Assembly: GCA_030770535.1 (NCBI GenBank)
Contig: JASVEC010000171.1
Location: 1-37,070, forward strand
Length of the DNA stretch: 37,070 nucleotides
Direction: 5' to 3'
Origin: Batkoa obscura
Lineage: Eukaryota
Made by a program: the position numbers and the translations under genes
Shown: piece by piece, positions 1-35,414 of the stretch
Numbering within the stretch: the first letter of the stretch is position 1
How the letters are laid out: every line of letters starts with the position of its first letter
Notes under the pieces: model-generated
Seen by the model: only the letters and a program-made list of their open reading frames with translations
Database searches by the model: none
Told to the model about the DNA's origin: nothing

Positions 1-420
1 ACATGTTCTGGTTGAATGATCATAGTTACTTCTTTATTGATATATTCTGCTACCTTTTTCTAGAATAAACCTTGTGAGCCATCATCGGATACAAAAGCAC
101 CTGACATAACTACTTCAGAGTCATAACTAGCCACAGGTATAATCTTTGAAACTCACAGGTAATTATTATCGCCGACAATGATACTATCTTTAGTAGATGG
201 TAGCCTTATTAAAGTGCCGTTTATTACTCTATCGCCTTCAGGCGCTCTAGTCTCAAAGTAATTTTTAAACTTTGCAATAAATTCCTGTTCCATTAAGTTG
301 GGACCATTATTTGAAGTTTCTATGGTGTTTTTTTTCTCCTTTAACTAAAGCAGGTCTACAATTAGGACTGTTATTAACTTGGGCAAATTGTCTTAGTTTT
401 TGGATTTTTTAATAGTCTTA
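1..420 (-). pseudogene. Degenerate reading frame, possibly a transposon (non-LTR ORF1-like) relic; runs off the window edge
   Basis: One minus-strand frame reads KTIKKSKN*DNLPKLITVLIVDLL*LKEKKNTIETSNNGPNLMEQEFIAKFKNYFETRAPEGDRVINGTLIRLPSTKDSIIVGDNNYL*VSKIIPVASYDSEVVMSGAFVSDDGSQGLF*KKVAEYINKEVTMIIQPEH. Composition is protein-like and GC is higher than the flanks, but there are four in-frame stops. The family assignment is a guess. Confidence 0.35.
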
Positions 421-2393
421 CATTGACTTGCATTGGAATTTATAATAGCCAAATAAATCAGTTACTTTTACTTAGCAAAGAATGGTATACCTAATGATGG
501 TTTATGTAGCCTTGAAAAATGGTAACAATCAAGCTATTTTCACCATTGAAATTAAAAGATTTATATATAGCTTCCGGATTTAGGATAAGTTGTCAGTTGG
601 ATATAATATATATGATGTGAGTCACTGGCTACATACTTTGTAACCATAGTTATTTTTAACAAGGTTACTACTATAATAGCTTAAATAGAGGCTTCTAAAT
701 TTATAGTAAATCGCCAATTACATGCAAAATTAATAGTAAATAGCTCTCAATTATGCTTGTGTAAACATCTTTGTATTTAATAAGTTTTTATTATAATAGT
801 TTAAATGACATTCTCAGTTTCGTGTACTCTCTTGAATAAGTACGGTTTCGAATTTTCAATCAGTTTTTATGAAATGGAGGGAGATTTAATAAAAGAATAA
901 AAAAGGTTATATCTACCATAAAATATTATATTTATACTTTTAATTCTTTATTCAATTGTTAATTTTATCAAGCTATATTATGTACAGAAAAACTTTAGGG
1001 GTTTAATAAGTTAACTTTTGTAACGCATCCAAAGCAAAATCTTACGATTTTTTCTGAATTGAATTCTCTTCTTAACTAGCCATGGAACTTATGTCTAAAA
1101 TGATTACTTTGGTTAATTTATTTGCTCAAAAAGTAAATATTTTTGTGCACTCACTTTAACTTGGATATGTTTTTTAACTTATTTTCCTATAAAATTAAGT
1201 TAAACTTCTATTATCAGCCTCAACTTTCAATTTGTAAAAAAAATTCAACCTGTTTCTAAAAAATTCGAGTTGATTTGAAAATAAGACTAATATAAAATTA
1301 TATATTTTTCTGGGAGTTTAAATTGATAAATTATTTATTTGAACGTCAAGATATTTAAAATTTTATTTATAATATCAAATTTTTGGATTTGTTTTAGATT
1401 AAATAGCTTTTTTATTGGTTCCACATCCAACAAGATGATATGGTTTATTTAAGTAAATTGTAAAGAATGAAAAGGAATAGAAGGTAAGATGTTAGAAGAA
1501 TTCGGGGATACTGAGGGCTTTGAACATTTTGAGTGCTTTGGCGTTAGGTTTGGTACGGCGGAAAAGATATTCAAATTCCTTATAAAGGGATTTTTGTCAT
1601 TCGAACTGCAGTATTTTATAAGAGGAAAACGCTAAGATTGATTTATAGTAGAGATTATGAAAGTTTCTGTGGACTACTCACACACTGAATAAAAAAATTA
1701 AATATCTTATTTTACAAAATCTAAGTGTGCGCAAAACTTTCGAGTCTAATATTTGGTGATTTTGACGTTGTCATAAATGTTAATAAATTATGATTTTTTG
1801 TATAGTTTTTTACTCGGTGATCAAGGTTTTATAATTTGTAATATAAATCACAAATATACTTATAGTATTTTTTTAAAATACGTTTAATTAGTTAGTACTA
1901 CCTTGTAAATCAACATCAGGCCCTAATTTTAATAGTACACTACTTTTAAAACTGTCTCAAAGTTTCAGGTGGTCAACTTTGAATGTTAATTTCTTACTAA
2001 TTAGTATTTAAAAAATAAGCTTTTTTTATAGTTATATTTGACTTTCTCATATCAACGCTTATACAAATGTCACTTTTGTAAATTTTATATTAAATAAAAT
2101 AACTTATTTTATCTCAGTTTAAAAGTGGGGCAGTTTTTGGAGGATATAACTAAAAATCATAAAAATTCAAATATCTCTTTATTTTTATTAATAACAACTT
2201 ATGTAGCTTTTGGTATATAATTAAAAGATATATGGGATGTTCCATAGAAAATTTCAGCTCAAATATGTCTATATTATATGATCATGGATCCATCAATCAT
2301 AAGTTATTTGATATTCTTAATGCTTTTTAAAACATAAGTAATATGGTATAAATGCATTTTATATAAAGTAATAATAACAACAAATAGTATAAA

Positions 2394-4139
2394 AGGGAAT
2401 TGATATACAAATCAATCAACCTAGAAATGGATAAAAACATAGATTTATTCTCTAAAAAACCAATTTACTCTTTTTCAACACTAGATAATTCAAGTAATGT
2501 GTTTAATGAATTATCTTCTCAATCTACATTAACTACAAGCTACAAGACTCCTTTACCTTATAACGCAAAAGTAATTTTATTCTTAGTTTTTTTAGTTTTT
2601 TTAGTTTTCTAATTTTTTATAGCAATTACCACCTTCTGATAATAAAGTTAATACTCGATATCACCCAGAAGATAGTTACCGCTTTCCGATTGATCCAGAA
2701 GATTTCACTCGTTATGGTTATATTAAGAATTGTAATATTAATTATTAAACAATGATAAAAATTACTAATATGTTTGAAGATATCATAAAGAATCATATGG
2801 GTGATATTCATCTTGGTATTGAAGAATCTAATCAATTAAAGATAAAAGTAAATATAAAGTATATTTCATTTTAATTATTAATACTTTTTATTAGATGAAA
2901 TCAAATATCAATTATTATCGTATTAAATATGAGATTGATGTATTACATATGTTAAATTATAATAGTAACTTCATTTATAATTAGAATTCTAGTATTTTAT
3001 ATTATTAGGTCTTATTGGAAATGAACTTTTGTTTCCAACAAAATTAGTTATTATTGAAGATGAATTTAAGTCAATTACTCTTGAATTATTACAATTGATA
3101 CTCAATTGTTCACTTAAAATTATAACTGAACAAGTTGAAATCAAAATACGATTATTTAATTTACCTAATTTAGAATTGTATTTTATTATTTATTTTAATA
3201 AAACTTTTACTTACTAATTTAGATTTACGCCAAGTACAATTAAGAAAGAACATTGTGATTATTTCAACAAACAAAATGAACCATTTATAATTTTAAACGG
3301 AATTATTAATAGTATTTGGGAGAAAAGATATAAAATGTAATTATTAATTGATTAATTGATAATTAATTAATAATAATAATACAATCAAATATTGATATAA
3401 TATTTAGAATTACTAAAAAATATAACTGTCAAAATAGTTTATGTCGAGATAAAAATTATTTGACTTCAAGTAAATTGAATATGAAATATAAAGTTATTAA
3501 AAGAACAGAAGCTAATTATTATTCCCCAATAACTACAAAGTAAATCAAATTAAATCAAATTAATTTAATCTATTATTAATAGCTATTATTTAAATAGTAT
3601 TGAATTACATAAATTAGATTTATTGTGTTCAAGTTGTTTAAAAAAAATGGAAGAAATCGTAGAAGATAGACTATACAAAGGTAATATAATATTTTATCTA
3701 AATTAATATTTTATCTAAATTAATATTTTATCTAAATTATTATTTTATCTAAATTAATATTTTATCTAAATTATTATTTTATCTAAATTAATATTTTATC
3801 TAAATTATTATTTTATCTAAATTATTATTTTTACAATTATTAGAAATTCAATGGATATTAATAATAGAAAAAGGTAATAATGTTTGTAGTGTTATGTTAC
3901 GTTGTGCCCTTTTATTACTTGAAAGTAAATAAAATAAATAAATAAAATAAAACATAATTAAAAATAAGATGATTTAATAAATAAATTTAATATTGGCCAA
4001 GAAATTCAATTTTTATGTAAGCCAACATATTTATTTAATTCGAAAGGTAAAATACAATTTATTATTACTATTACTAATTATTATTTACTATTATTATTTA
4101 CTATTATCATTATCATTATCATTATCATTTAATATTGTT

Positions 4140-4170
<31 letters not shown>

Positions 4171-6296
4171 TATATTAATTAATAAATAGAATTATCAAAA
4201 GAACTTGATGGATTAAATTATATAAATAAAAGTGTTCTATTTGAAGTAACTTAAATCAGTACTTTATAGCTATAATTAATATTATTTTAGGTGAACAATT
4301 ATTATTATAAACAAGTATAAATAATATTTTAGCTATATATTATTTGCTTATAACAGATATAGGATAAAATAGAGAATAATGTTCAATTAAATTCAATTGA
4401 ATTTCAACTTAACATTATGTATCAAACTATATTAAGTAACTATTTTAATATTTTATAAATTTATAAATTTATAATTGATTTTAGATTGTTTATATTTTAA
4501 TAACAATTTTAATCAAATTAAACATGTATTGTTATTAAAGTAAGTTATTATCATTCTTAAATACAAGTTATGGGGATGTATTTTTTGTTTAAGAATTTTA
4601 CTACAATCCTTCCATTCAAATAGCGCTTAAAAAGTGGAAAGATAATGAAGCTAAAAAAAACAGCCCCTTTAATATCACTATTTATAATAATATTTCATTA
4701 TAGTTTAACATCTAATAATCTAAAAACATTAATGTTTTATAATGATGATGATTTAAAATTAAATTATTTATTTCAAATAATTTCAAAAGTTAAAAAGTAA
4801 TAAAATCAAAAGATTAAAATTGATAGATTAAAATATTAATATTAATATTAACATTAATATCAGAATTAATTATTGGCAATTTCAAAATAATGAATTAATG
4901 AAATTAGATTACTTTGATAATCAAAAAGTAACTAAAAATAATATATCACAGGGAATACATGGTAAAAGTATTTATTTTTATTTAAATATATTATAATATT
5001 TTTATTAGCAAATTTAATTTCAGATTTAAAGAATGGTTTATTGTGTATAAAATTATATACTTTTACATTAAAAAATATAAAAAAATTAAAAGGTAAAATT
5101 AAAGAATTAGTATTAATTGTAAGTTAATGAATCATTATAGAGTTATTAATTAAAATCACTAAATTTCAATCTTTAAACATATCAATAATATTATTATGTA
5201 ATATAGAATTATTAAAAGTAAAATAAATAAATAACAAATAATAATAATTAACAATAATTAACAATAATCAATAATTATCAATTTAATAGAAAAAATATCC
5301 GTTTGATTTGAATGTTTTATTAAAGTAAATAATATATTAATATTTTATTTATATTATTAACATTAATTGAAGTGACTTTGATATTATAATCAAAAAGAAA
5401 GATATTAGTACTAATGAAGAAATTAATTTGTTTTTAAATAATACATTGATTGATGATAATTATTTAAATAATCATTATCAACAGAACGATGAATTATTTA
5501 TTAAAATGAAAAATGTAATTCAACTAATAATCGATAAATTCTAACTATTTTATTTTTAGTATTTGGAATTATTATATAATTTAGATATAAGGTAATTAAA
5601 TTATATAATTCAATAATAATATACTATTATTATAATAGTTTAAGTGAATGTTGTCAAGAAATAATACAAATGTATTTCAAAGCATTAAGAAACTTACAAT
5701 TAAATAAAAAGAAATGTATATTAAATCCACATGATTCATTATCTGTAAGGAATAATAAAAATAATATCAAATATAAATATTAAATATGAACATTAAATTC
5801 ATTATGCATAGAGTTTAGCCAAAATCACTATTTTAAATGCTAAATGTTTTCATAGAAAAATAGCAACTATTGAAGATGCTTTAATAAGGTAATTATATTT
5901 ATTCTACTATTTTATTGTTATTTTATTGTTATTTTATTGTTATTTTATTGTTATTTTATTGTTATTCTATTTAACTTGTATTTAGTATAATTTACTTTGA
6001 AAATAATTTAAAAGTTAAATTTCATTATAAAGCTATCTACATTAAAAAGAATGATAACATTGGTAAATAAACATATATATATTATAATGGAACATTTATT
6101 AATATTTGTAGATTATAATATCTTTAATACAAATGATATAAATAATGAATTGTTATTTAGTTTACCTATTAATAACATTTCTTTTTTATTAAAAAAAGAA
6201 GTACAATATTGGCTATCAAATAGTTTATTAAATAATTGTTATGATTATACAAAAACGGATCTAATTAAACATCTCATTCATTTATTAAATCTATAA
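2394..6296 (+). CDS. MCMDC2: MCMDC2-like (divergent MCM-domain, meiotic recombination) protein, left copy; first ATG mutated to AGG, next in-frame ATG at 2427
   Basis: Manual splicing across ~24 short GT-AG introns (e.g. 2571-2622, 2717-2779, 3681-3843, 4540-4703) gives YYRIKYEIDVLHMLNYNSLIGNELLF...EQVEIKIRLFNLP, FIILNGII...KYNCQNSLC, DLLCSSCLKKMEEIVEDRLYKEIQWI, DLINKFNIGQEI, ANLISDLKNGLLCI and LSECCQEIIQMYFKALR...SLAKITILNAKCFHRKIATIEDALISIIYFE. These blocks are collinear with my recollection of animal MCMDC2: N-domain, zinc finger, OB fold, degenerate AAA+ and lid. I saw no intact Walker A motif. Some splice sites in the 3' half are approximate. Confidence 0.75.
3689..3824 (+). repeat. 17-bp minisatellite (A/T)TATTTTATCTAAATTA x8 filling an MCMDC2 intron
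   Basis: Eight consecutive units counted inside intron 3681-3843. Confidence 0.95.
4569..4671 (+). mobile_element. ~100-bp MITE inserted in an MCMDC2 intron
   Basis: TATGGGGATGTATTTT...AAATAGCGCTTAAAAAGTGGAAAG...AAACAGCCCC; same family as the copies at 21962, 29584, 35536 and 36077. Confidence 0.85.
5910..5965 (+). repeat. 11-bp tandem repeat (TTTTATTGTTA) x5 in an intron
   Basis: Directly visible; mirrored in the right arm near 13785-13840. Confidence 0.9.
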
Positions 6297-6567
6297 CAAA
6301 ATAAATTAAGTATTCAATGCTCGTTAATTATATTATCAATATTTACCATTTATAGCCATTAGTAATTCAATTGATTGGTAGTATAATCAATGGCCAATAA
6401 AGAGTAAGTTAACTAAGGATAAAAATTAAGATGATGGTATAATTCTTGAAATGATTAGTTGTATTGAGTCATCAAAATTAGCGATTTAAAATTTGAAACA
6501 ATAAAAACTAAAATTAATTCATAATCTTATTCATTTATCCTTAACTTTAAAGCTACATAAAAGAAAG

Positions 6568-7805
6568 ATGCCACTTAATTTCAACTTAAAATCTATTGTA
6601 CGTCCCAACATCCTCTCCTTAGAACCTTATCGTTGTGCTCGTGATGATTATAATGAAGGTATCTTATTAGATGCCAATGAAAATAGTTATCCTTTCAATC
6701 TATCATCAGCTTGTTTAAATCGATATCCCGATCCTTATCAATTATCACTAAAGCAAAAGATAATGTCATATAAAAAGATTGATAATGTAAAGAAGCTATT
6801 TTTAGGAGTCGGATCGGATGAAGTAATTGATTTAGTATTAAGAATATTTTGTATCCCAAGTCAAGATAGTATATTAATTTGTCCACCAACTTATGGTATG
6901 TACAAAGTATGTGCTAAAATTAATGATGTTAAAGTAGTTACTTGTCCTTTATTAAAAGAGAAATTCCAATTGGATGTAGATAATGTGGGTTATTTTTATT
7001 ATTTTATATTAATATTAACAATTCAATTCTTATCTAGATATTAAAAATGTTATCATCTACTCCAACAATTAAAGTCATCTTCCTTTGCCATCCTGGTAAT
7101 CCAACTGGAAGTTTATTAAACTTAGATGATATTGAAATTCTATTAAACAGTTCTTTTAATGGTATTGTAGTAGTCGATGAAGCTTATATTGATTTTGTAG
7201 ATTCTAAATATTCTTGTTTAAATTTATTAAATTTATATCCTAACTTGATTGTAACTCAGACATTATCCAAAGCTTTTTCAGCTGCTGGAATTAGGTAAAT
7301 TAAAATTATTAGGATACAAATTAAAATTTTATTGATTGATTGATGAATTTATTATATTAGATTAGGTATTGCTTATAGTCATACGGAAATTATTCAATTA
7401 ATGAATAATACTAAAGCACCATATAACATCTCTTGTTTAACTATTGAAAAAGGAATGGAAATTTTTGAGCCAATAAATTTATCTACAGTTTCCAATAACA
7501 TCTCTAAAATCAGTGAATCTAAACAATCTCTAATTAAACAAGTATCAGATCATCCTCAATTAACTTTATTAGGTACTTCAGATGCTAATTTTTTATTAAT
7601 GCAAGTCAAAAATAAGGATAACAATCCATGCTCTAATAGAGCAAAAGAAGTTTATAAATACTTAGCGGATGAATTGAAGATTGTTATTCGTTACAGAGGT
7701 AATGAAATGCATTGTCAAGGATGTTTAAGAGCTACGATAGGTACGGAAGATGAGAATCAAAAAATGTTAAGTGGCTTATTCAAGGCTTTAGAGAAAATTG
7801 AATAA
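6568..7805 (+). CDS. HIS5: Histidinol-phosphate aminotransferase
   Basis: Motifs VRPNILSLEPYRCARDD, LLDANEN, NRYPDP, GVGSDEVID, PPTYGMY, PGNPTG, VVVDEAYIDF, TQTLSKAFSAAGIRLG (PLP lysine) and CLRATIGT. Introns at 6985-7037 and 7295-7360. Confidence 0.96.
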
Positions 7806-8127
7806 ATAAAATAAAAATAAAATATAAAATAAAATATAAAAATGGAATAGTTAGATTAGGATTTTATTTTGTCATCAATTGATTTAAAAAAAATCACATT
7901 AATTCAATAATTAGCATCCATTTTAATATTCTACCAATGAAAGTAAAAAAAGTTATTTCAACTAGTACCAATAGGAACACATATTCAAAATAAAATAAAA
8001 ACAAAACATCACATTTACTGACTATTTTATTTTCAAAGTAAAGATTTCATTCTATCCATACATCAAGAGGTAAGCATGTAAAGGAAAGAAAGTTCAAGCT
8101 TACAAAATTTCATTAAAAAATTACTCT

Positions 8128-10301
8128 TTAATTTTTACGAATTTTTAAACTATCAATCATATCTTCAAATTTCGAAATATTACGAATATACCAATCTCCA
8201 TATCTTCGAGCAATTTTATGTTCTGTTACCATAATAATATCCTAATAATAGATAAACGAAATTAATGTACATTTCTAGCAATTTAATTTATAAACTAAAC
8301 CTTACCTTATTGACTGTAAAATCTAAATCACTAGCTAAAGTATATTGGCCATCCAATAAATTACCTACGTTTAATTGCTTCTTTTGTTTTGACTTTAATT
8401 TTAATATTAATAATTGTCTTCGAACTTCATCTTTATCAATATTTAAGAAACTTGCCAACTTCTCAATAGATAAAGTTGAATATAAAGCAAGATAAGATCT
8501 TAAAGTAGGAATAAGATATTGATGTTTAACTTCTTGTAAAAAGATACTTAGTTGATATTGAGTAGCTGATTGCTTTTTGTTCTGATTCATCCATTTTAGT
8601 TAATGTTGGTGAGATAAATTTAGGACAAGAATATAGATATAATTCTTCATAAGTGGATAAATTCGATTCTAATGTGCGCATAGATGACATTTGTTCACTA
8701 TATTTTTCTTTAAGGGTATTATGAATATGCTCATCAACTCGACTAGAGAATAAGGAGATGCACATAGCTAATAAAGCATACATTTGATCTACTTTTTTAT
8801 TCATCTAATATTAAAAAATATTATAAAAAATATTAATTAATTATATTGTTAAATATATTAAAAATATTCTACTTTACCTGATCAAATTGATAACTTTTGG
8901 TTTGAAATATTTTAGTTCTTGCCATAAAAGATAATATATGAGAAAAAGAACGAATAGCATCTGCATATCTTCTCATCATCATATAACAAAATCCAATATA
9001 ATAATAAACAGTTACATGGCATGCAATAACTCTATGAAATGGTGATTTTTTACTTAAATCTACATTATCTAAAGTTTTTAAGGCCATGGTATAATTGCCT
9101 AATAAACAATGAACTCGAAGTAATCCAATGATTGAGAAATAACCTAACATTTTATATAATGGTTTATTGATATAATCTTCTTTTTCTTCTCTATTAAAAT
9201 AAAATTAATACAACAGTATAATAGTAATTTAGTCATTTTAAACTTACACTTCCAATTGTAAACCTGGCTCTTCTCCATTTTTTAAAGCTTCTAAATGTTC
9301 ATAAATACTTGATTTTTGAATTAAAGAGTAAAGAACGTTTAAAACAGAATAACAAGACCAAACCTAAATAATAATAATTAATATATTTACCTTTCATAAT
9401 AAAATAAAAACTTACTTGTGGATTTTCTTTTAATAAAATTAACTCTTCTTCTGTTTTACTTTTGATTTTATTTCTAAATGTTGAAAATGTTTGAAATTGA
9501 TAAATAAATTCATCAATAATATCCCATAACCATTGGTTAGGTAATTCTAATGGTACTGGGCCATCTGAATCTATTAATATTAGTAATTAGAATTAATATA
9601 AAATAACATAATATGATAATTTTAGTTATAGTTTGACACTGTATGTGAGGATATAAAGAATAGTATTAAACTTTAGCTTACTTAAAATATAATTAAATAA
9701 ATCACAATAATTTTCATATGATTGAAAACGGTGTTCAATACTTGGTTGTAATTTAGAGTAAATATGACGATAATAAAGTTCACGATATAATGTTAAAAAT
9801 ACTTGATCTATAAAAATAAAAGTAAAGTATTATTAATTATTCCATAAAAGTACATAAATCATCAATAAATTTCCTTTGCATGATTTTTGAAATTCTTAAA
9901 TCAAAACTTACCATCGCTCACTAAATGACTCACAACCTCTGGATCTGGCCATGAGCTTTTAGCATAATATCTTTCAGTTAGTTTATTGAATAAATTTTCA
10001 TAAATGTATTGTAATTCATAATAATTATTTTCAACTAAAGCATGATGAAATTTAAAGATAAATTTTTTAATTTCTTCTGGTAATCCGTTAACTGCCGAAT
10101 TAACACTTTCAATCGAATGACTATGCTCTAAAAACGAGGAAAAAGAAATGGGTTAATGAGAACATTTGACAAATGTGAGAACTGGATAATATTTGAAAAA
10201 AATTACTTACCATATTCTTCTTCCTCAAGATTACTTGGATATAAATTAGGTGTTAATACTAATTCTAAAGGAATATCATCATCTTCATAATCGTTATACA
10301 T
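8128..10301 (-). CDS. EIF3L: Eukaryotic translation initiation factor 3 subunit L (multi-exon)
   Basis: Motifs [93 protein letters not shown] and [15 protein letters not shown] at 10301, stop TAA at 8128-8130. Confidence 0.95.
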
Positions 10302-10618
10302 TTTAGTATTTTCTTTCTTTTTTTCTTTTATCTATAAATTTAACTATCTTAGTTGCTCTCTTTATATAAAAAGTAATTTTGAATATTAAATTTTGCTACA
10401 ATTAACACTATGAATTTCATGGTTTTAATTGGTTCAATTTAGAAAATTGAAGTGTTATTATGGGATTTTATGTTGTTTTGACAATTTTAAGATTTCAATA
10501 TTAAAAATGTGATCAAAAAAAACAAAAAAAGTCCACAAAAAAAAATCAAAAATATATCAATTAACATAATCATAATTCATTTATTATTATTCTTGCATTA
10601 TTTTTCATTTATCTTCTT

Positions 10619-13058
10619 TCATTTCTTACCCTTTTTTCCACGAGTAGCCTTGGTTCCTGCCGCCTTTGATTTTCTTTTAGCTGCAGTTCCCTCTTTAGCT
10701 TTTGATATCAATTTATCTTTCATTACATCCTCATCATCTTCTTCCTCTTCTTCTTCTTCTTCTTCATCATTCAATTCACCTTCACCCAACACGTCCTCTA
10801 AATCTGGTATGGCTTCTTTTTTAGTCTTAACCGAAGCAATAACTACATTCAACATTGTTGGATGAGGCTGTTTATTGTAACTAAAATAAAAGAAATAAAA
10901 ATAATGTTAGTTGGATTTTCTAAATATAAAGTAGTATAGCAAAACATACGTTCTAGTAAATGCTGATTTGACACTAGTTGGTATGCCTTTTAGAATTTCA
11001 CTACCAGCTTGAGAACCAATACCTAAATCTATTAATGTGTCCCAATCTTCTTTATCAAGATAATAATTATCCATCAATTGAATTGTTTTTGATATACCAT
11101 TCTAATTTAATTAATATATTAATAAAAAATAATATAAAAAAAGATTCACTTAAAATAGTAAAATGATAAAATAGTATTAATTGACTTACATTCCCATCCT
11201 TAATTAGTTCTTTAGTCAATTTATTATTTAATGCTAATAAATAATTTTGTCTTAATTCATTTTTATCTCCTGAGATTTTCACTTTCATATGTAAATGAGT
11301 TTGTTTTAATAATCGATTATATTTATTTGTTTTTGAGTTCTGTCCTAACCAACTAAAATAACATTGTTAATTGATATTAATTATTAATATTCTATTACTT
11401 AATAACAGCGACAATCATTATTTAACTTACCTTGGAAATCGATATCTATCACTCATTTTACCATGCATAAAATAAGACGGAATTGCACAAGAATAGGCAG
11501 CATGTAAAGGCATTAAATCCCAGTTTTGAGAACTAAATTATTAATCAATTAATCGATAATTAATAAAACTGAATTTTACTTACGTATGAATAGATTTTTC
11601 AATTAAATCTGCTTGAGAAATAAATTCAGAAGCATGGACTATTTTATCTAATGTTTCTAATTCTTTTTGTTTAAAATTCATTGTTGAACTACTAGGTTGA
11701 CAATATATATAATTTTCCTATCCATTTATTTTAGTATAAATTAAGTATTGTCCTCTATCTATTTCATAAATGTCTTAATAAACTTACTTGTACCATTAAC
11801 GGAGCCAATTGATAATCATGAAAATATAACTCAATTCGATCAGTGAACGAATCATTCATATAATTTTCATTACTAAAATAACGACTAGCAATATCAAATG
11901 GATTTAATAATACATTTTTTTTCATCATATTTGAACTAAATTTAATATTGATATTAATATTAATAATTCGACTTAAAAGCTTGTTGATTATCCTATAATA
12001 AATAACTTACAATTCTTTCGATTGTTCTTTAGACATACTTTTACTAGTTAATCTCCAACTTGATAATAAATTAATAATTTGTCGAATATCATTACGACTG
12101 GTTTCGACTAAAGTTTCTAATACATTTTCAGATAATTCAAGTCCTTCTTTAGTAATGATTCTTTGAATCAAAGGTCTTATTTGGGCAGCTGTAGGTCTAT
12201 TGAAATTAATTAATCAACAATTAATTGTTATATTACTTAATTTATTTAATATATGAATTAAATTTACCTTCTAAATCGATAATCAAAACAATGATTAGCT
12301 AAGGATTTAATTTTCACTGAGTTTCGGTCATTACAGATACAAATAATTGGTACCTAATTAATTAATTGTTATTAGTTATTATTAATTAAAAAATACATTA
12401 ATTAATATAATTAATACCTTAGTAGTCTTTAATAACTTAATAATTTCTTGAATACCACCTCTATCTCCACCTGACATACCATCAATTTCATCCAAAATCA
12501 GTACTTTTTTTCTACCTTTACTTTTATCCTTATCTCCTTCCTTCCCATCCTGCTTCGTTTTATCCTTTTTAAAATATGATAAAATAGAATTACAACTTAA
12601 TATTTCTTTAATCTTTTGTTCAATACTTTTTTTTGATCTTGTATCTGAAGCATTAAATTCAATAGCTTCGTAACCAGCTTCTTTACAGGCTATGTAAGCT
12701 GCACTTGTTTTTCCAATACCTGGCGGTCCACTGATTAACACAGAGCGAAAATTGACTTTGGTTTCAAGGCCATTAGGGTCCCTAACAAACAAGAAAAAAA
12801 TAAATTAACTGAATTTATAAATAACAAATATTTTTAAATTGAAATTGAAATTGATAAAAAGGAGTGAAATGAAAAGTATTTGATAAAACTCACCATGTTT
12901 TTAAGAATATAATTAAATTATCTATTAATGTTTTATTACCAATTAAATCGAGTTTGTTTACTGGTCGATATTTTTCTACCCATAAACTATATTGATAATT
13001 ACTATTGAATATTATTAAATTTGAATTAATGTTACTCATTCGTTGCTGCAACACTCAT
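10619..13058 (-). CDS. RFC1: Replication factor C large subunit (RFC1), no N-terminal BRCT region visible
   Basis: Motifs LWVEKYRP, LISGPPGIGKT (Walker A), IEFNASDTRSK, LILDEIDGMSGGDRGG (Walker B), PIICICNDR, YFHDYQLAPLMVQENY, WDLMPLH, FPSWLGQNSK and TSVKSAFTRTYNKQPHP, with an acidic/basic tail. Predicted start is MSVAATND, an intron, then NYQYSLWVEKY. Confidence 0.93.
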
Positions 13059-13452
13059 TTATATTTTATATTAATTGTAATTTAATAAGTGAACAAAAAA
13101 GGAAAATTGAGTTATTTTTTCTTTTGATAAATTAAAGGATGGAAGTTACGTTGATAAAAAGTTGATTGGTTGAATTATTTTAATGAGATAACATTTTTAT
13201 TTTATTTTGTTCACTTCTCATATAATATAAAGATTGAAAATTAAAAGAATAACTATTTTCATAATTAAAATGATTAATAGAATGATTAATATTTTTGACC
13301 ATTTTGTTAGATAATCTAATATCCAACTTGATCGAGCTGAGAAAATAAAACTTATGAGTTGATTTATAGCCACTTTATTGAGAAATAAAAATCATTGATA
13401 ATATAATATAATATAATATAATTAACGAGCATTGAATACTTAATTTATTTTG

Positions 13453-15578
13453 TTATAGATTTAATAAATGAATGAGATGTTTAATTAGATCCGTTTTTGT
13501 ATAATCATAACAATTATTTAATAAACTATTTGATAGCCAATATTGTACTTCTTTTTTTAATAAAAAAGAAATGTTATTAATAGGTAAACTAAATAACAAT
13601 TCATTATTTATATCATTTGTATTAAAGATATTATAATCTACAAATATTAATAAATGTTCCATTATAATATATATATGTTTATTTACCAATGTTATCATTC
13701 TTTTTAATGTAGATAGCTTTATAATGAAATTTAACTTTTAAATTATTTTCAAAGTAAATTATACTAAATACAAGTTAAATAGAATAACAATAAAATAACA
13801 ATAAAATAACAATAAAATAACAATAAAATAACAATAAAATAGTAGAATAAATATAATTACCTTATTAAAGCATCTTCAATAGTTGCTATTTTTCTATGAA
13901 AACATTTAGCATTTAAAATAGTGATTTTGGCTAAACTCTATGCATAATGAATTTAATGTTCATATTTAATATTTATATTTGATATTATTTTTATTATTCC
14001 TTACAGATAATGAATCATGTGGATTTAATATACATTTCTTTTTATTTAATTGTAAGTTTCTTAATGCTTTGAAATACATTTGTATTATTTCTTGACAACA
14101 TTCACTTAAACTATTATAATAATAGTATATTATTATTGAATTATATAATTTAATTACCTTATATCTAAATTATATAATAATTCCAAATACTAAAAATAAA
14201 ATAGTTAGAATTTATCGATTATTAGTTGAATTACATTTTTCATTTTAATAAATAATTCATCGTTCTGTTGATAATGATTATTTAAATAATTATCATCAAT
14301 CAATGTATTATTTAAAAACAAATTAATTTCTTCATTAGTACTAATATCTTTCTTTTTGATTATAATATCAAAGTCACTTCAATTAATGTTAATAATATAA
14401 ATAAAATATTAATATATTATTTACTTTAATAAAACATTCAAATCAAACGGATATTTTTTCTATTAAATTGATAATTATTGATTATTGTTAATTATTGTTA
14501 ATTATTATTATTTGTTATTTATTTATTTTACTTTTAATAATTCTATATTACATAATAATATTATTGATATGTTTAAAGATTGAAATTTAGTGATTTTAAT
14601 TAATAACTCTATAATGATTCATTAACTTACAATTAATACTAATTCTTTAATTTTACCTTTTAATTTTTTTATATTTTTTAATGTAAAAGTATATAATTTT
14701 ATACACAATAAACCATTCTTTAAATCTGAAATTAAATTTGCTAATAAAAATATTATAATATATTTAAATAAAAATAAATACTTTTACCATGTATTCCCTG
14801 TGATATATTATTTTTAGTTACTTTTTGATTATCAAAGTAATCTAATTTCATTAATTCATTATTTTGAAATTGCCAATAATTAATTCTGATATTAATGTTA
14901 ATATTAATATTAATATTTTAATCTATCAATTTTAATCTTTTGATTTTATTACTTTTTAACTTTTGAAATTATTTGAAATAAATAATTTAATTTTAAATCA
15001 TCATCATTATAAAACATTAATGTTTTTAGATTATTAGATGTTAAACTATAATGAAATATTATTATAAATAGTGATATTAAAGGGGCTGTTTTTTTTAGCT
15101 TCATTATCTTTCCACTTTTTAAGCGCTATTTGAATGGAAGGATTGTAGTAAAATTCTTAAACAAAAAATACATCCCCATAACTTGTATTTAAGAATGATA
15201 ATAACTTACTTTAATAACAATACATGTTTAATTTGATTAAAATTGTTATTAAAATATAAACAATCTAAAATCAATTATAAATTTATAAATTTATAAAATA
15301 TTAAAATAGTTACTTAATATAGTTTGATACATAATGTTAAGTTGAAATTCAATTGAATTTAATTGAACATTATTCTCTATTTTATCCTATATCTGTTATA
15401 AGCAAATAATATATAGCTAAAATATTATTTATACTTGTTTATAATAATAATTGTTCACCTAAAATAATATTAATTATAGCTATAAAGTACTGATTTAAGT
15501 TACTTCAAATAGAACACTTTTATTTATATAATTTAATCCATCAAGTTCTTTTGATAATTCTATTTATTAATTAATATA

Positions 15579-15609
<31 letters not shown>

Positions 15610-17413
15610 AACAATATTAAATGATAATGATAATGATAATGATAATGATAATGTAAAGTAAATAATAATAGTAAATAATAATTAGTAATAGTAATAATAA
15701 ATTGTATTTTACCTTTCGAATTAAATAAATATGTTGGCTTACATAAAAATTGAATTTCTTGGCCAATATTAAATTTATTTATTAAATCATCTTATTTTTA
15801 ATTATGTTTTATTTTATTTATTTATTTTATTTACTTTCAAGTAATAAAAGGGCACAACGTAACATAACACTACAAACATTATTACCTTTTTCTATTATTA
15901 ATATCCATTGAATTTCTAATAATTGTAAAAATAATAATTTAGATAAAATAATAATTTAGATAAAATAATAATTTAGATAAAATAATAATTTAGATAAAAT
16001 AATAATTTAGATAAAATATTAATTTAGATAAAATATTAATTTAGATATAATAATTTAGATAAAATATTAATTTAGATAAAATATTAATTTAGATAAAATA
16101 TTAATTTAGATAAAATATTATATTACCTTTGTATAGTCTATCTTCTACGATTTCTTCCATTTTTTTTAAACAACTTGAACACAATAAATCTAATTTATGT
16201 AATTCAATACTATTTAAATAATAGCTATTAATAATAGATTAAATTAATTTGATTTAATTTGATTTACTTTGTAGTTATTGGGGAATAATAATTAGCTTCT
16301 GTTCTTTTAATAACTTTATATTTCATATTCAATTTACTTGAAGTCAAATAATTTTTATCTCGACATAAACTATTTTGACAGTTATATTTTTTAGTAATTC
16401 TAAATATTATATCAATATTTGATTGTATTATTATTATTAATTAATTATCAATTAATCAATTAATAATTACATTTTATATCTTTTCTCCCAAATACTATTA
16501 ATAATTCCGTTTAAAATTATAAATGGTTCATTTTGTTTGTTGAAATAATCACAATGTTCTTTCTTAATTGTACTTGGCGTAAATCTAAATTAGTAAGTAA
16601 AAGTTTTATTAAAATAAATAATAAAATACAATTCTAAATTAGGTAAATTAAATAATCGTATTTTGATTTCAACTTGTTCAGTTATAATTTTAAGTGAACA
16701 ATTGAGTATCAATTGTAATAATTCAAGAGTAATTGACTTAAATTCATCTTCAATAATAACTAATTTTGTTGGAAACAAAAGTTCATTTCCAATAAGACCT
16801 AATAATATAAAATACTAGAATTCTAATTATAAATGAAGTTACTATTATAATTTAACATATGTAATACATCAATCTCATATTTAATACGATAATAATTGAT
16901 ATTTGATTTCATCTAATAAAAAGTATTAATAATTAAAATGAAATATACTTTATATTTACTTTTATCTTCAATTGATTAGATTCTTCAATACCAAGATGAA
17001 TATCACCCATATGATTCTTTATGATATCTTCAAACATATTAGTAATTTTTATCATTGTTTAATAATTAATATTACAATTCTTAATATAACCATAACGAGT
17101 GAAATCTTCTGGATCAATCGGAAAGCGGTAACTATCTTCTGGGTGATATCGAGTATTAACTTTATTATCAGAAGGTGGTAATTGCTATAAAAAATTAGAA
17201 AACTAAAAAAACTAAAAAAACTAAGAATAAAATTACTTTTGCGTTATAAGGTAAAGGAGTCTTGTAGCTTGTAGTTAATGTAGATTGAGAAGATAACTCA
17301 TTAAACACATTACTTGAATTATCTAGTGTTGAAAAAGAGTAAATTGGTTTTTTAGAGAATAAATCTATGTTTTTATCCATTTCTAGGTTGATTGATTTGT
17401 ATATCAATTCCAT
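13453..17413 (-). CDS. MCMDC2: MCMDC2-like protein, right copy with intact ATG
   Basis: Same exons as the left copy; starts AAAATGGAATTG (MELIYKS) at 17413 and ends LIHLLNL* at 13453. Confidence 0.78.
15078..15180 (-). mobile_element. MITE copy in the right-arm intron, identical to 4569-4671
   Basis: Exact reverse complement of the left-arm MITE. Confidence 0.85.
15935..16118 (-). repeat. 17-bp minisatellite, 11 units (one shortened to 14 bp)
   Basis: TAATTTAGATAAAATA(A/T) units counted by hand; the left-arm counterpart has 8. Confidence 0.93.
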
Positions 17414-17910
17414 TTTATACTATTTGTTGTTATTATTACTTTATATAAAATGCATTTATACCATATTACTTATGTTTTAAAAAGCATTAAAAGTATTAAA
17501 AAGCTATGATTGATGGATAGTATCCTAGAATTAAAATGTCGATTTATTATAATATTTGTAAAATGGATTGTAGTTTAGTGCTACAAACAATTTATGTTTA
17601 GTATTTTTTATTTATTTTCATATAAAAAATGGCTAGTTATTTGAGCTATTACACATTTGTTAGAATAAGCTTATAGCAAATACACTAAGTTTTCAAAAAG
17701 AGTAACTAATAGTAATATTTGCAACAATTTTGCTTTGTATTCAAAACATAAATAACCTCACTTTTATTTAATAAACTGCAGCCTCTTTTATATAAAAACC
17801 GTTAGTTACTTCCTATTAGTATTTCTATTCCTAAATACCTTATATGATTATATAAAAGCACTTTGCCTATTCAAACACCTAAATTCTTTGTTCGAATTCC
17901 ATTAGCATAG

Positions 17911-18013
17911 TACGGGAATGCATTCTTTGTTTAAGGATTGTACTAACAATCTTTCCGCTCAAATAGCGCTTAAGAGATAGAAAAAGTAATGAAGCAAAAA
18001 AAACATCCCGATA
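17911..18013 (+). mobile_element. MITE copy (diverged)
   Basis: TACGGGAATG...TACTAACAATCTTTCCGCTCAAATAGCGCTTAA...AAACATCCCGATA. Confidence 0.8.
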
Positions 18014-18349
18014 TATTATAATAACGATACATTCAACCAACGTAATAAGCATATTTATTTATAAGTTACACATTGACCCCTTCACTAGAACATAGACTTG
18101 ATGAACTATACAATTACAGTAACCAACGTGAGCAAGTTGTTGGCATAATATAACTTACTGTGATAGGAAAGAAATTCCCAATGGTGATTACTATTAACTA
18201 TGTATATAGGTTTTGGCAGAAGCTATTATATAAGCATTTATGTTTTATTGATCTATACAGTAAAATGGGAAATTATAGTTTAACGTGGTTTTTACAATGA
18301 TAAAGATACGATATAAAACTAATTAAAGTGAAAAATAAATAACATTTTA

Positions 18350-19027
18350 TTAAAATTTTAACCTTAAAGGGGAAGGATTAAAATAATTGATGATAGATGA
18401 TCTTTGAGATATAATATGACCTAACATAAATACAATTAAACCTTCAGGTAAATCTAAAATAGTATTAATACTATCGATTGTAACTTTAGCCACTTCTTTT
18501 AATTTTATAAAATCAAATTTGACTGTGCCTAAAATCTGTTTACTTTCCACTACAATTAGCTTCCAATCATTCATATTATTAGTAGCATCTAACAACAGAA
18601 GCACAGTTTCATTATTCGATATAAACTCTATCATAAACCATTTACCATCCCCAGTTTCGATACAGATAGTATGATAATCCAAATCATTAAAATACTTCCA
18701 ATTACAGATAGAAATAGACCACATCAATTTTTGTTTTGTCGATATATTACTACGAAGAGTAGCCACAGTTCCAACGCCGCTTAATGATAGAGTGGAGTGT
18801 TTATAAGTTTTGCTGATACAATTTAATTGTTTAATCGAATTTTCAAAACTTTCTCGAATGATTATATGGTTTAAATTGAATATACTCTTTGATGTGAAGT
18901 CATATTGACTTTCTTTAATTTCAATGGGGCGGTATAAATAAACCAAGGTACCAGTAGAAAATCTCTTTCTGTCCTGCCTATCCACTTTACTAGTGTTACA
19001 CTTTGGAAATAATATGCTCAAAAACAT
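18350..19027 (-). CDS. Hypothetical protein, 225 aa, intronless
   Basis: A 678-bp ORF is long for this AT content and starts at ATG. It shows a beta-strand-like pattern followed by a hydrophobic C-terminal helix. No family recognised with confidence. Confidence 0.7.
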   Translation of the reverse strand: MFLSILFPKCNTSKVDRQDRKRFSTGTLVYLYRPIEIKESQYDFTSKSIFNLNHIIIRESFENSIKQLNCISKTYKHSTLSLSGVGTVATLRSNISTKQKLMWSISICNWKYFNDLDYHTICIETGDGKWFMIEFISNNETVLLLLDATNNMNDWKLIVVESKQILGTVKFDFIKLKEVAKVTIDSINTILDLPEGLIVFMLGHIISQRSSIINYFNPSPLRLKF

Positions 19028-19989
19028 GATTTATTCTTTCTTTTAAAATATTTATTCTTTTTATACTTTTTATATACTTTAAATCACACGAATAATTAAT
19101 AATATAAAAGCCTTCTTAATCTACTAGGGGTATTTAATGTCCATATTAATACACTTTCGTACTTAATTAGTAGTTGGTGTTCGGTGAGTTAACAATTAAG
19201 TCAACATTTTAAAAATCAACTTTAAATTAGCAAAAGTTAACAATTTTAAAACATATTCATTACTTTGATCGTACTTTTAAGCTTAAAACTAGCTAGAAAT
19301 GTGGCAACAAAGGGTGTCATTCATAAAATTAAACTTATTCTACTTGTATACTATATTTTAGCCTAGCCTTATGTAGAACAGGGTTATTAATCACTTTTAA
19401 TAAGTGATCTTCAATTTTGCTATTATTTTTTACATTTGTAAGCTCAAATGTACACTGAAAATTATCCACTTAAGACTAAAATTTTGAGTTTCAGGCTCCA
19501 AGTTAGTGAAATTATAAACTATTAATTATAAAAAACATCGCTAACTAGCCCACATTCAAACTTAAACAGACTTTAATAGATGTTTTTAATGCTATTTTTT
19601 AAACTGTTTTGCATAACCATGCTATTTTAGCTTTAAAACAAAAATTAATAAGTCAAAACAACTATCATTTAATATAATAATACCAGTATAAAGAAAATAA
19701 CCTAATAAAATGCTAACTTTTTAAAAATAAATTCTAAACTAAAGAATTATTATGCTATAATTTTAAACTACACACTAACTAATTTGCTATTATAATAATA
19801 TTCTATTGGTATTATCAAAAATAAAAGCCTGCTATTTCTTTTTGTAGGATGACGTTGTCAACTTACAAAAAAATATAATTACGCGTCTTTTAAAATAAAC
19901 TATTTGGGTACACATATATTATATTACGACTTAGAAAATTCAGTTTATAAAGACAGGAATATATAAAATAACTTATACTTTATTATCTC

Positions 19990-21160: not shown

Positions 21161-21961
21161 AAGGCAAATGTTTATTATGAAAACTAAAATGAAATATAAA
21201 GTAATTTTTCAAATAATTTGAAATTTTTTGATGGAAAACTCAGTAACAGTAGTAAATTGTAACTAGAAAAATTGCTGATTTTTAATAATACTGTAAAGTA
21301 TTTTAAGATGGTAATAGTGAAGCTTACAATCGATTAAAAAAATTAGATCAAAGTTTAATTTGAAAATAAATCAAAGTTCAAGCTAAATATTGCGCCATAT
21401 TTAATAATATAGCTAACAGCAGATTTAAATAAACATACTTAACATAAATAAACGAACCTTATTTTGAAATTTATTATCTGAGAAGTCTAATTTAAGTATT
21501 ACAAACATCAATCCAAATTAAATTATTTTTCAAATCATTGGGCTGAAAAATTTATTGAAAAAATTGATATTAAAATTCCACCTATTTTCATCAGCAACAT
21601 TCTTAAATATTATACAATATGAACATCTAGTTTTTATTAATGCAATTATTTCTAAAATATTATAATGGCTAAAGAGTTTTTTATAGCGGATGATTGCCAC
21701 TAAAATAAAAGTAAAAATGTCAAACATGTTTTTGGCTTTAATGTTATTTGTATGACAGATGTCTTATCTTTTTAAAACAATGGAGCACTTTTAGCTGATG
21801 TCATTTTACAGCATTTTCTTTAAAGATCTTGAATGAACTTGAGAAATTTATAAGTGTATTATTGTTAGTGGAGAATTATCTCAACTTTAATTTGAATGAA
21901 AAGAGTTTTTATAGCATCTTGATTTTTTTTTGATATCCTGGATTATGTTATTTAAATAAAC

Positions 21962-22065
21962 TATGGGGATGTATTTTTGTGTTTAAAATTTTACTAACAA
22001 TCTTTCCACTCAAACAGCGCTTAAAAGATAGAAAAAGTGATGAAGCTAAAAAAGGCACCCTCCTA
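21962..22065 (+). mobile_element. MITE copy
   Basis: TATGGGGATGTATTTTTGTGTTTAAAATTTTACTAACAATCTTTCCACTC...GCACCCTCCTA. Confidence 0.85.
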
Positions 22066-27722: not shown

Positions 27723-28569
27723 TTAAGTATAGATATTTAGTTTTCCATAATCCTTAAAAAAAGATTTTACTAAGAATAATCCCAAGTTTGTAGGTTGGGA
27801 AAAAGCAATATAATTTAATGGCAATTGAGAAATACCATAGTAAACATCATTCCTTAAACAAGATAATAATGTTTTAGCAATTCCCAATTGACGGTAGCTA
27901 TCTAATGTCCAAATACGCTTAACTCCAATGATCATCTTTTCCTGTTTTTTAATATCACAAAGGAATTCAACATCAAAGTTTAATCTTTTATAAGCACTAA
28001 CATGTTCGCTTATTAATACTCCTATCACGTCATCACATTCATTTAAATATATTAAATACTAAATCTTTTTTCAACTACTTCAATTTATTTTTATATAAAT
28101 TACCTTATAATTTTTTATTTCATCATTTTCTAATTTTATCCCATCTATCTTTCTATTTATAAACTCATTAATTTCTATCAACTATTATTGTATTAGTTAT
28201 TATAAATGAAACAAATTTGGACCTACTTTCTTTAGTTCAAATCCTCGAGCCCTTGAGCCATGAAACAATATAACTTTACCCAAAGTTTTACTTAAAGGTC
28301 GAATAACAACTCTCTTTAGCAAACTACTATTTTTGTATGTTTTCTACTTAAAGATTAAACTTAATCAACTAAATCATTTCAAATACCTTAATTTTTACAC
28401 CTTCTTTTCTACTATTACAATATTTCTTGTGGAATACCAAATCCTTTTTTGTCTTGTTATAGACCATTCCACATTCTTGACATTTTTCAATATTTCCTTG
28501 TGTTCCTGGATGATAATATATTTCTTCTTTAAACTTCCTTATATTATCCTTCTCTGTAATTGCTTTCAT
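27723..28569 (-). CDS. ECO1: Cohesin acetyltransferase Eco1/ESCO, multi-exon
   Basis: N-terminal zinc finger CQECGMVY...DLVFHKKYC and C-terminal GNAT motifs IGVKRIWT...RQLGIAKTLL and IAFSQPT..G. Confidence 0.9.
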
Positions 28570-29582
28570 TTAGATAAAAAGAATTGTAATTATGATTATT
28601 TTAATTGAAAATATTTTTACAATCTCAGCAAATCATTATTAAATTGACTTTATAAAAATAGTAAATCAAATCACAAAGTAATTAACAAAGTAATAATATA
28701 AGGTTGTAAATTTTATAGCTAAATTTAAATGATCATATATTAATTGATTTATAATGACCTATTATATAGTTTTGCATATTTTTAAGTATATTGCGTTATT
28801 TAAATATGATTATAAATTAAATAGTTATTATAAGGATAGAACATAAAGCTATGTAAAAAATATATACATTTGAATAACACATTTATAATGCTTATAGCCT
28901 TTCCTTACTAACGACTTCATATTTATATTAAAATATTTTTTATTGCTAAATTTAACTCAGTTCTTTTATAGATTACCTATCTTTTATAATAAGTATTAAC
29001 AATATTATTTTTGATAAGTTTAAATATGGGAAAAGTTTAGTAAATCTAGATACAAAAGCCATTAAAAAGATTCAAATAGTTTGCTATTAGGATACTTTAT
29101 GCTTGGTTGTTTTAATGAGATAATGTTATAAATTAAGATTATATTGGAAGTAAAAAAATACCATTTTAAAGCTTTATAGAATAATATTATATTAAAATTA
29201 ATTTACTTTAATAACATTATCTAAAAATAACTTGGGATAATAAAAATAAAGAACTGAGCTAAATAGAAGTTTGATGTCATGAAATGTCACTTATTACAGA
29301 AATCGCTTTAAAGTTATACTTTAAAATCAACGGAGTTTAATTCTATACCTTTTTATTTATATCTTTAAATATACTATTATTTTTATATTATTATCACTTT
29401 TCTTAATTGTTTATTTTAAAAGCCCCCTTGTTTTCATAATTCCGTCCATATGATAGTTTGTAATCTGTTACATAATTCAAATTTACGGATAAAAATGATT
29501 TTGTTCTAATAGAGCTAGCTACCTTAACTTTATTTTAAAAAAACCCATAAAACTGACTTTTAATTTTTGATCAATAAAATTA

Positions 29583-29756
29583 ATATGGGGATGTATTTTT
29601 GTGTTTAAGAATTTTACTAACAATTTTTCCACTCAAATAGTGCTTAAAAGATGGGAAAAGTAAAGCCAAAAAAACACTTCTATATACAGAATGAAGCACT
29701 ATTTGAGTGGAAAAATTGTTAGTAAAATTCTTAAACACAAAAATACATCCCCATAT
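29583..29756. mobile_element. Full MITE plus inverted 5' half, forming a hairpin with perfect 63-bp arms
   Basis: 29583-29645 is the exact reverse complement of 29694-29756; the spacer is 48 bp. Confidence 0.92.
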
Positions 29757-30387
29757 GTTTATTAACGTGCGAATATAAAGCTTTGCTCAAAGTATTTTCT
29801 GATTCAATTCTTTTTTTTTTGATTCTGAAATAGGAACTCAGATTCAATAATTTTTTCATTTAAATAAAAGTAAGCTACAATAAAAGGCACAACAGACTTT
29901 ATTAAAATTATGCTATGTTAAATAAAACGTGGATGTCTCTTATTAATACCATATTTGGAAACAAATCTACCTCATAAACGGCCATTAAAAATGACTAAAA
30001 AGATGTATATTTGTTTTAAAAAAATGCCAAAAATGTAAACTATTTTGCTATAATATAATATAACCCTTAAATTATATATATGTGATATGTTTTTATTTTT
30101 ATAGTTAAAAAGATGTGTAAAGATAATTATATTTAAAAATGTATTTAAAATTTTAAAATCCAACTACTAATAAAGCATAACCATAACATGATGTTCAGTC
30201 TAGTTACTTTAACTTTTGAGGGTATCATATGCGATAAAACAGTTTAGATAAGTTATATGAGGGTTGGTTCTGTAGATACTGAGTTAGGAGTCAAAATGAG
30301 ATAAAAGAGAATGAAAAAGGGAGGGATATAAGACGTTATAACTTTGTTACCCAATTCAAATAAATAAATAACCCGCGTTAGACTTTA

Positions 30388-33820: not shown

Positions 33821-33915
33821 TTGGAGATATTTCTTTTAATTTTATCACTTTTTCGATTTCTTAAATACTATTGAGTAGAAAAAATCCTGATAAATTTCTT
33901 AAAAAAACACCCTTA
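33821..33915 (-). mobile_element. Highly degenerate MITE copy
   Basis: TTGGAGATAT...ATCACTTTTTC...CTATTGAGTAGAAAAAAT...TTTCTTAAAAAAACACCC resembles the reverse-strand copies at 36077-36284. Confidence 0.55.
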
Positions 33916-34101
33916 ATTAATAAAAATGAAAATTTATCAGTAGACGATATACAAGAATTAGTATACTCATTTCTTTACTTTTTTACTATATACTTCTTTT
34001 AAACTCTAGCTATAAATTGCCTTTTTGATTTGTTATCAAAACTTTGTCAAGTATATTTAACAATAAGATATTCAGCTGTTGGGAATTTTTTTAAGAATAC
34101 A

Positions 34102-34196
34102 TATGGGGATGTATTTTTTTGCTCAAGAAGTTTACTAATAGTCTTCTCAAATAGGGCTTAAAAAAATGAAAAAATGAAATCAAAAAACATTCTTAT
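34102..34196 (+). mobile_element. MITE copy (diverged, internal deletion)
   Basis: TATGGGGATGTATTTTTTTG...CTCAAATAGGGCTTAAAAAAATG...AAAACATTCTTATA. Confidence 0.8.
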
Positions 34197-35366: not shown

Positions 35367-35414
35367 AATAAAATACTCAATAAAATACTCAATAAAATAC
35401 TCAATAAAATACTC
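35367..35414 (+). repeat. 12-bp tandem repeat (AATAAAATACTC) x4
   Basis: Four exact units visible. Confidence 0.95.

Follow-up and report, generated by a model that had tools for sequence, protein, structure and literature searches.

An inverted gene pair and its three-gene spacer

The 37,070-nucleotide stretch analysed here (the window) is contig JASVEC010000171.1 of Batkoa obscura (GenBank assembly GCA_030770535.1), and contains two inverted arms, each a whole copy of one intron-rich gene, on either side of a unique segment that carries an aminotransferase gene and the genes for eIF3 subunit L and RFC1. The first-pass annotation of this DNA had described two near-identical arms of about 4 kb with a 7-kb spacer, which is confirmed by the coordinates below. 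It had also termed the locus a 15-kb palindrome; the arms are indeed inverted, but the structure is a spaced inverted repeat rather than a perfect palindrome. The elements of the repeat are as follows.

2317-6336, + strand: left repeat arm (4,020 bp)
13413-17490, - strand: right repeat arm (4,078 bp)
6337-13412: unique 7,076-bp spacer, which an arm-arm crossover would invert
2427-6296, + strand: MCMDC2-like gene, copy 1, 24 exons, 742 amino acids (hand-built model)
13453-17380, - strand: MCMDC2-like gene, copy 2, whose predicted protein from the shared ATG is the same as that of copy 1
3687-3831, + strand: tandem array of 17-bp units within intron 8, with 8.5 copies in the left arm (11.4 copies in the right arm, 15928-16117)
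4557-4667: dispersed element of ~110 nt in intron 13, resembling a miniature inverted-repeat transposable element (MITE), the same in both arms and ~87% like the other copies in the window
2289-2316, + strand: eroded outer rim, left, ~79% like 17491-17518
17491-17518, - strand: eroded outer rim, right

Global alignment of the two arms, with the tandem arrays excluded, revealed three substitutions (2395 G/T, 2510 A/G and 2838 A/G) in 3754 non-array bases, a divergence of 0.08% that corresponds to 99.9% identity, introns included. All three lie in the outer part of the arm (3/522, compared with 0/3232 inner non-array bases; p 0.003), and positions 4103-6336 are 100% identical to the right arm. 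The 17-bp intronic array differs between the arms by a 48-nt copy-number indel and three T/A changes, and a second length difference is a 10-nt indel in an intronic microsatellite. Outside the near-identical part, a 28-bp rim retains ~79% likeness (score 32, equalled by none of 200 shuffles), and beyond this rim no homology was detected, since 53 of 200 shuffles on the outer side and 148 of 200 on the inner side scored as high. The rim is likely to be an unconverted remnant of an older and slightly longer duplication.

The repeat unit is close to the gene itself, as the first-pass annotation had noted, in that the arm begins 110 bp ahead of the gene start and ends 40 bp beyond the stop codon (49 bp if the ragged edge is included), which corrects the ~45-60 bp given earlier. 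The start codon previously placed 77 bp inside the repeat is an additional in-frame ATG, 11 codons upstream, that is present in the right arm alone (17413-17411, - strand, facing 2394-2396) and arises from a single arm substitution: position 2395 reads T in the right arm, while the left arm has AGG. From their counts of other letters, contigs of three of the four sequencing runs introduced below (X1, X3 and X4) carry the left-arm letter at 2395, and the shared start is therefore likely to be 2427.

A shared boundary and probable concerted evolution of the arms

The left end of the repeat was compared over window positions 1-4400 with short-read contigs from four DNA runs, X1 to X4, which come from four studies and carry three organism labels. 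The region occurs in twelve runs, of which the other eight are presumed to be RNA (share 0.08-0.27). In all four DNA runs a contig starts exactly at 2317; the flank contig, in X1, X2 and X4, reaches as far as 2346, which gives a 30-base overlap of a branch point that falls at the very base where the window arms stop matching. Each run differs from the window at no fewer than 17 flank sites, so that none of them is its source. The 2317 boundary is seen under three organism labels, in runs diverged from the window by just ~0.75%. The depth of the arm contigs relative to the flank is about doubled in X1 (1.95 and 2.08, per contig) and X2 (1.73, 1.95, 1.90 and 1.87) and about threefold in X3 and X4. 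A base-exact shared boundary combined with raised depth in four runs argues against both a misassembly and a duplication private to one strain, and the depth of the arms, which the first-pass annotation had pointed to as a means of recognising misassembly, likewise disfavours that possibility.

The window differs from X1 at 17 of 2346 flank positions and 11 of 1669 arm positions, and from X2 at 18 of 2346 and 17 of 1670 positions, whereas the two arms of the window differ from each other at 3 of 1739 positions in the stretch compared (Fisher p 0.03 for X1 and 0.001 for X2). Between-strain divergence of the arm is accordingly 0.66-1.0%, compared with 0.08% within the window. Among the strain-variable arm sites listed, both window arms share the same letter at 18 of 18, and at six of these all four runs carry a letter other than that of the window arms. 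The arm variants mostly track the grouping of the flanks, X1 and X4 against X2 and X3 (sites 3485 and 3197; 2633, 2963, 2977 and 3100). We also calculated the depth expected were every strain difference a collapsed arm-versus-arm bubble: for three contigs the expected values were 1.66, 1.53 and 1.74, compared with observed values of 2.08, 1.90 and 1.95, and an X2 contig that is free of differences, with a depth of 1.87, provides the baseline. The X2 contig with a depth of 1.73 suggests that the arms of X2 also differ from each other near the outer end.

Because a mutation that follows a shared duplication can reach both arms only via arm-arm exchange, conversion is likely, and since arm-arm divergence is about one-tenth of strain divergence, the average site has been re-copied far later than the strains split. 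The arms consequently appear to evolve in concert, most likely via gene conversion, and the conversion half of the earlier proposal of an invertible or conversion-maintained locus is supported by the boundary common to the four runs and by an arm-arm likeness in the window that is some tenfold closer than the likeness of arms from different strains. We consider it probable that the locus is a whole-gene inverted duplication common to several strains, in which the copies of a likely MCMDC2-type gene are homogenised by conversion and the spacer would occasionally invert as a by-product. Repair of a break in one arm would, as the data strongly suggest, use the other arm as template, with the result that any fresh mutation is lost or else spreads to both arms. 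Conversion tracts would cover the inner part of the arm most and thin out toward the outer end, leaving the three outer substitutions and the 79% rim.

Several points weigh against this explanation. The comparison draws on 40 of the 102 rows that list differences and on 32 of the 196 for contigs; short-read contigs drop variants, and the depth of a single contig within a run is a rough measure of copy number. The runs cover the left outer junction, and the position of the second copy at the same place in the other strains is an assumption. Two contigs are undiscriminating in the bubble calculation (X1, 1.95 observed and 1.88 expected; X2, 1.73 and 1.62), site 2349 groups X3 with X4, contrary to the flank grouping, and great age does not follow from the comparison when the strains are so little diverged. 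Finally, the roughly threefold depth and a diverged extra copy in X3 and X4 render the two-copy picture incomplete.

In X4, arm contigs have 2.8-3.4 times the flank depth and are accompanied by another of single depth, in which 7 of 105 nt differ. In X3, a contig of 0.8x depth with 28 differences in 312 nt lies beside a 2.2x contig, and the two merge into a 2.7x contig at 2999-3196. These extra contigs are likely to represent an older third copy of the arm gene, 7-9% diverged and patchily converted. That the sample was mixed or heterokaryotic is a less likely explanation, since the flank contig of X3 runs unbroken for 3,048 nt. The same data could be taken to indicate a dynamic family of two to four copies, varying by strain and under dosage selection, in which all copies swap tracts and the inverted pair is simply the most visible part. 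The raised depths, the diverged single-depth contigs and the unbroken X3 flank, which speaks against the sample holding a second complete genome, fit such a family. However, X1 and X2 stay twofold, and the extra contigs could reflect a duplicated region or a sample that was mixed or heterokaryotic, with depth being a rough guide; we regard a family of this kind as unlikely to be the correct account, although it complements the converted inverted pair more than it excludes it.

The first-pass annotation had considered a plain recent inverted duplication, with arms alike through youth rather than conversion, to be equally possible. The near-complete identity of the arms, which extends to the introns, and the lack of a recombinase nearby are what such an event would leave. 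This reading is nevertheless disfavoured by the 2317 boundary common to four runs that are themselves diverged from the window, and by strain differences that are fixed in double-depth contigs; it is implausible that independent duplications in each strain would share a base-exact end. The 79% rim and the gradient of differences toward the outer end likewise point to age, and a plain recent duplication is in our view very improbable. An assembly artefact or merged haplotypes can be given hardly any weight: misassembly classically yields near-identical arms, and the contigs of the other runs cover the left outer junction alone, but double depth and a base-exact branch point recur in four independent runs, the arms differ at three sites and in two arrays, and, as a weak further indication, the RFC1 contig of Neoconidiobolus thromboides FSU 785 is only 9,404 bp long, as a break at a repeat would give.

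Identity of the arm gene

An automatic exon search ran through obvious introns near the 3' end of the arm gene and was replaced by a hand-built model, which predicts 23 GT-AG introns of 41-164 nt and an open frame of 742 amino acids across 2427-6296. Both coding differences between the arms are synonymous, and of 12 coding changes in total, 8 are synonymous where 35% would be expected (p 0.024), an excess that lends mild support to a live gene in the modelled frame.

MCM profiles were built from 125 proteins, nearly all archaeal. The N-terminal MCM profile aligns with residues 202-334, which are encoded by five exons, and has the four zinc cysteines and the end of the OB fold all in register; the profile of the MCM AAA lid aligns with residues 592-665, collinear with the OB and zinc-finger match. 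The joint score for the two matches in this order was equalled by 1 of 1000 full shuffles and 2 of 1000 local shuffles. The AAA core profile scored no better against the model than against shuffles, and neither a Walker A pattern nor the SRF motif of the arginine finger was found in the 742-residue model, in which wrong middle exons could hide motifs. Loss of Walker A and B is a described feature of MCMDC2 (PMC5070785). We read the arm gene as MCMDC2-like because the OB fold with its zinc finger and the lid are present and Walker A is absent, as in MCMDC2, and because of a likeness to MCMDC2 motifs. The arm protein resembles MCMDC2 and MEI-217/MEI-218 in its length of ~700 amino acids, in an OB fold with a C4 zinc finger, in the lid and in the loss of the Walker motifs; it differs in its strong divergence and in having no annotation in the protein collections that were searched. 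The gene is thus likely to encode a degenerate MCM of the MCMDC2 type, predicted from its sequence to act in meiotic recombination, and its product may function in the meiosis of the zygospore. Accounts of a divergent, lineage-specific meiotic MCM exist for Tetrahymena (Mcmd1; PMC6922451), and a decayed MCM8 or MCM9 or a lineage-specific MCM of that sort is a candidate alternative identity for the arm gene.

Against this identification, the last exons were picked by hand with the MCM lid in mind and differ from those of the automatic model, and the spacing allowed between the two matches in the joint test was our choice. Taken by itself the N-terminal match is weak: as good a score was reached by 96 and by 71 of 1000 shuffles, and in hhalign by 9 of 100. 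The lid match by itself was equalled by 5 and 4 of 1000 shuffles and 2 of 100 in hhalign. Single exons recovered no MCM in Pfam (20 exons), in the Protein Data Bank (PDB; three exons), in protein collections or in the Atlas. No MCMDC2 sequence was returned by the homologue searches, and the likeness to MCMDC2 is drawn from MCM profiles and described features rather than from comparison with an MCMDC2 sequence. Coding changes found among the strains only are synonymous in 6 of 10 cases (p 0.09). The 'meiotic MCM gene' of the first-pass annotation is consequently upheld weakly as an MCM, through the joint match, and as meiotic solely through its likeness to MCMDC2.

Individual exons also gave matches that were discarded. 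The match of exon 5 among 1.84 billion representatives was one spurious protein of tandem repeats; in a set of 5.8 billion proteins the same exon yielded 26 candidates, none of which scored, and among metagenomes it matched two unrelated loci. The Sushi-domain matches of exon 10 in the PDB reflected a chance motif summed over repeats.

Spacer, flanks and known inverted repeats

The spacer holds three genes:

6568-7805, + strand: histidinol-phosphate aminotransferase of the HIS5 type (PF00155), head to tail behind gene copy 1
8128-10301, - strand: eIF3 subunit L, Paf67 family (PF10255)
10619-13058, - strand: RFC1, 570 amino acids, without the N-terminal BRCT region, head to tail behind gene copy 2

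Pfam supports the aminotransferase, eIF3L and RFC1, the last also found by homologue search, in agreement with the HIS5-eIF3L-RFC1 spacer proposed earlier; for the first gene the Pfam support extends to a class I/II aminotransferase, which we presume to be HIS5. The RFC1 exon has its best match, nearly but not fully identical, in KAI9290817.1 of N. thromboides FSU 785, an aphid pathogen, which marks the window as another strain of it or as a very close species. The start of RFC1 is 355 bp away from the right arm and is preceded by in-frame stops. The BRCT region is missing from both the window and the FSU 785 protein, while the RFC1 proteins of Entomophthora, Massospora and Basidiobolus (850-987 amino acids) retain it. 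The idea that the arm split RFC1 has no support within the window, where a search in six frames found no displaced 5' half encoding BRCT (positive control, 222 bits); the loss of BRCT could be linked to the duplication or independent of it.

The right flank contains ordinary genes (CREG, an L-domain protein, ALG11 and ECO1), and the left flank extends for just 2.3 kb in the window. The ECO1/ESCO-type cohesin acetyltransferase gene (27723-28569, - strand) is found 10 kb away from the repeat, in a tail-to-tail arrangement with ALG11, and together with RFC1 and the MCM pair places several chromosome-maintenance genes within 30 kb, possibly by chance. Just beyond the right arm is an open frame of 226 amino acids (18353-19030, - strand) without a Pfam family, and a spliced gene at 30391-31315 (- strand) gave a single weak match, to the septation protein Etd1, below the cut-off (E 0.0035). 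The last 5.6 kb (31400-37070) are AT-rich and gene-poor, with no Pfam match and many MITE-like copies. This MITE-like family has units of ~110 nt with terminal inverted repeats of ~13 bp and comprises a dozen copies that are 77-90% alike and without an Rfam match (4557-4667, 15082-15192, 17911-18014, 21952-22053, 29573-29765, 34096-34198 and 35535-36527); the pair at 29573-29765 stands back to back and folds into a long hairpin, and a dense cluster lies near 36 kb. No Rfam families and no tRNAs were detected in the window.

Both copies of the arm gene point inwards, and each is followed by a housekeeping gene in head-to-tail orientation. The inverted geometry leads one to predict that arm-arm crossovers would, presumably rarely, turn round the segment with HIS5, eIF3L and RFC1; this would need no dedicated recombinase and would leave gene content unchanged. 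Since the arms face inwards with the same gene, inversion alters no gene's immediate neighbour. The alternative of a regulated flip/flop, in which inversion induced at the zygospore stage switches cell state as at Ogataea's mating-type (MAT) locus, draws on a geometry that permits inversion, on a repeat gene that is likely meiotic, and on the description of Entomophthoromycota as homothallic with their sexuality unexplained (PMC3734969). Its effect on gene context is nil, however, as inversion leaves every immediate neighbour in place, the spacer consists of three housekeeping genes, the genes of the right flank are ordinary, and in the closest known case orientation was stable through ~53,800 mitoses and 950 meioses (PMC9731477). 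In a Pfam analysis of 141 open frames of at least 45 amino acids outside the right arm, no HMG, homeodomain, alpha-box or recombinase families were found. This bears out the earlier observation that the window lacks a recombinase and a mating-type gene, and leaves the comparison with MAT loci, drawn in the same annotation, unsupported. We consider a regulated switch of this kind very doubtful.

In Ogataea, nitrogen starvation inverts 19 kb and places MAT genes under centromeric repression (PMC5720833). The B. obscura locus resembles the MAT loci of Ogataea polymorpha and Komagataella phaffii in having kilobase-sized inverted repeats around a segment of several genes in a homothallic fungus, but differs from them in that no mating-type genes are present in the spacer and the flanks within the window, with 2.3 kb on the left, give no sign of an adjacent silencing domain. 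A better comparator is the flip/flop (FF) region of Saccharomyces chromosome XIV, where 4.2-kb repeats, IRL and IRR, carry YNL018C/YNL034W and YNL019C/YNL033W (Salzberg et al., 2022). That paper (PMC9731477) describes these repeats of sporulation genes as homogenised within strains and species, proposes inversion as a by-product and leaves open the selective cause of homogenisation. Both loci have inverted arms of ~4 kb that consist of protein-coding genes, are alike through their non-coding parts and surround ordinary genes; both have boundaries common across genomes, homogenisation of the arms within a genome and no dedicated recombinase, and in both the repeat gene is linked to the sexual stage, in the case of B. 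obscura by its predicted function. The B. obscura repeat differs in that each arm consists of one intron-rich gene, in an identity of 99.9% (97.6% in FF), in a spacer of 7 kb (24 kb in FF) and in the lack of a tRNA at the arm ends, in encoding a likely recombination factor where the FF gene encodes a prospore-membrane protein, and in the extra part-converted copies that some strains likely possess. The FF region is further marked by two orientations, linkage to a centromere and cross-species conservation, while the present locus is known from one window and from contigs of the left junction. It shares with FF the inverted arms, the common boundary and the likeness within a genome, and appears to be an independent case of the FF kind, not a MAT-type switch. 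In the palindromes of mammalian X and Y chromosomes, arm identity above 99.9% is ascribed to gene conversion, with rare inversions (PMC3723533). The B. obscura arms are similar in their conversion-type identity and in carrying a germline-type gene, but each 4-kb arm is a single gene, the spacer exceeds the arm and holds housekeeping genes, and no sex chromosome is known.

Overall, there is good support for an inverted gene pair that undergoes conversion; a meiotic role of the pair is plausible, and its invertibility is unproven. An inverted repeat maintained by conversion is of a known kind, while this instance appears to be independent and new. Literature on fungal MCMDC2, on MCM8, MCM9 and MEI-218 and on mating type in Conidiobolus gave no title or abstract dealing with a fungal MCMDC2 or with this locus, within a coverage that takes in few subscription papers. 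The original MEI-218 phylogeny may list fungal members. The absence of this 24-exon gene from the protein collections searched means that annotation may overlook MCMDC2-like genes in fungi.

An unrelated and likely meiotic gene with the same architecture in an early-diverging fungus would provide an independent case beside the Saccharomyces FF region, and would suggest that genes of the sexual stage tend in general to be associated with inverted pairs that correct themselves, as they are on the sex chromosomes of mammals. In Entomophthoromycota, karyogamy and meiosis in the zygospore are called undemonstrated in PMC3734969, although nuclear fusion has been observed in C. thromboides (PMC8588673; see also PMC11105155 on fungal sex). 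An intact, converted MCMDC2-like pair is a marker in this setting, as its expression, its conversion tracts and its orientation could be traced through zygospore formation. A more speculative and rather unlikely extension is that the locus is self-referential: the recombination factor encoded in the arms would stabilise, in zygospores, the very arm-arm exchanges that homogenise its own copies, seed part-converted extra copies and invert the spacer, so that orientation would be a heritable record or switch of the sexual cycle. If true, such a flip/flop would record a sexual cycle that has so far been undemonstrated in the Entomophthoromycota.

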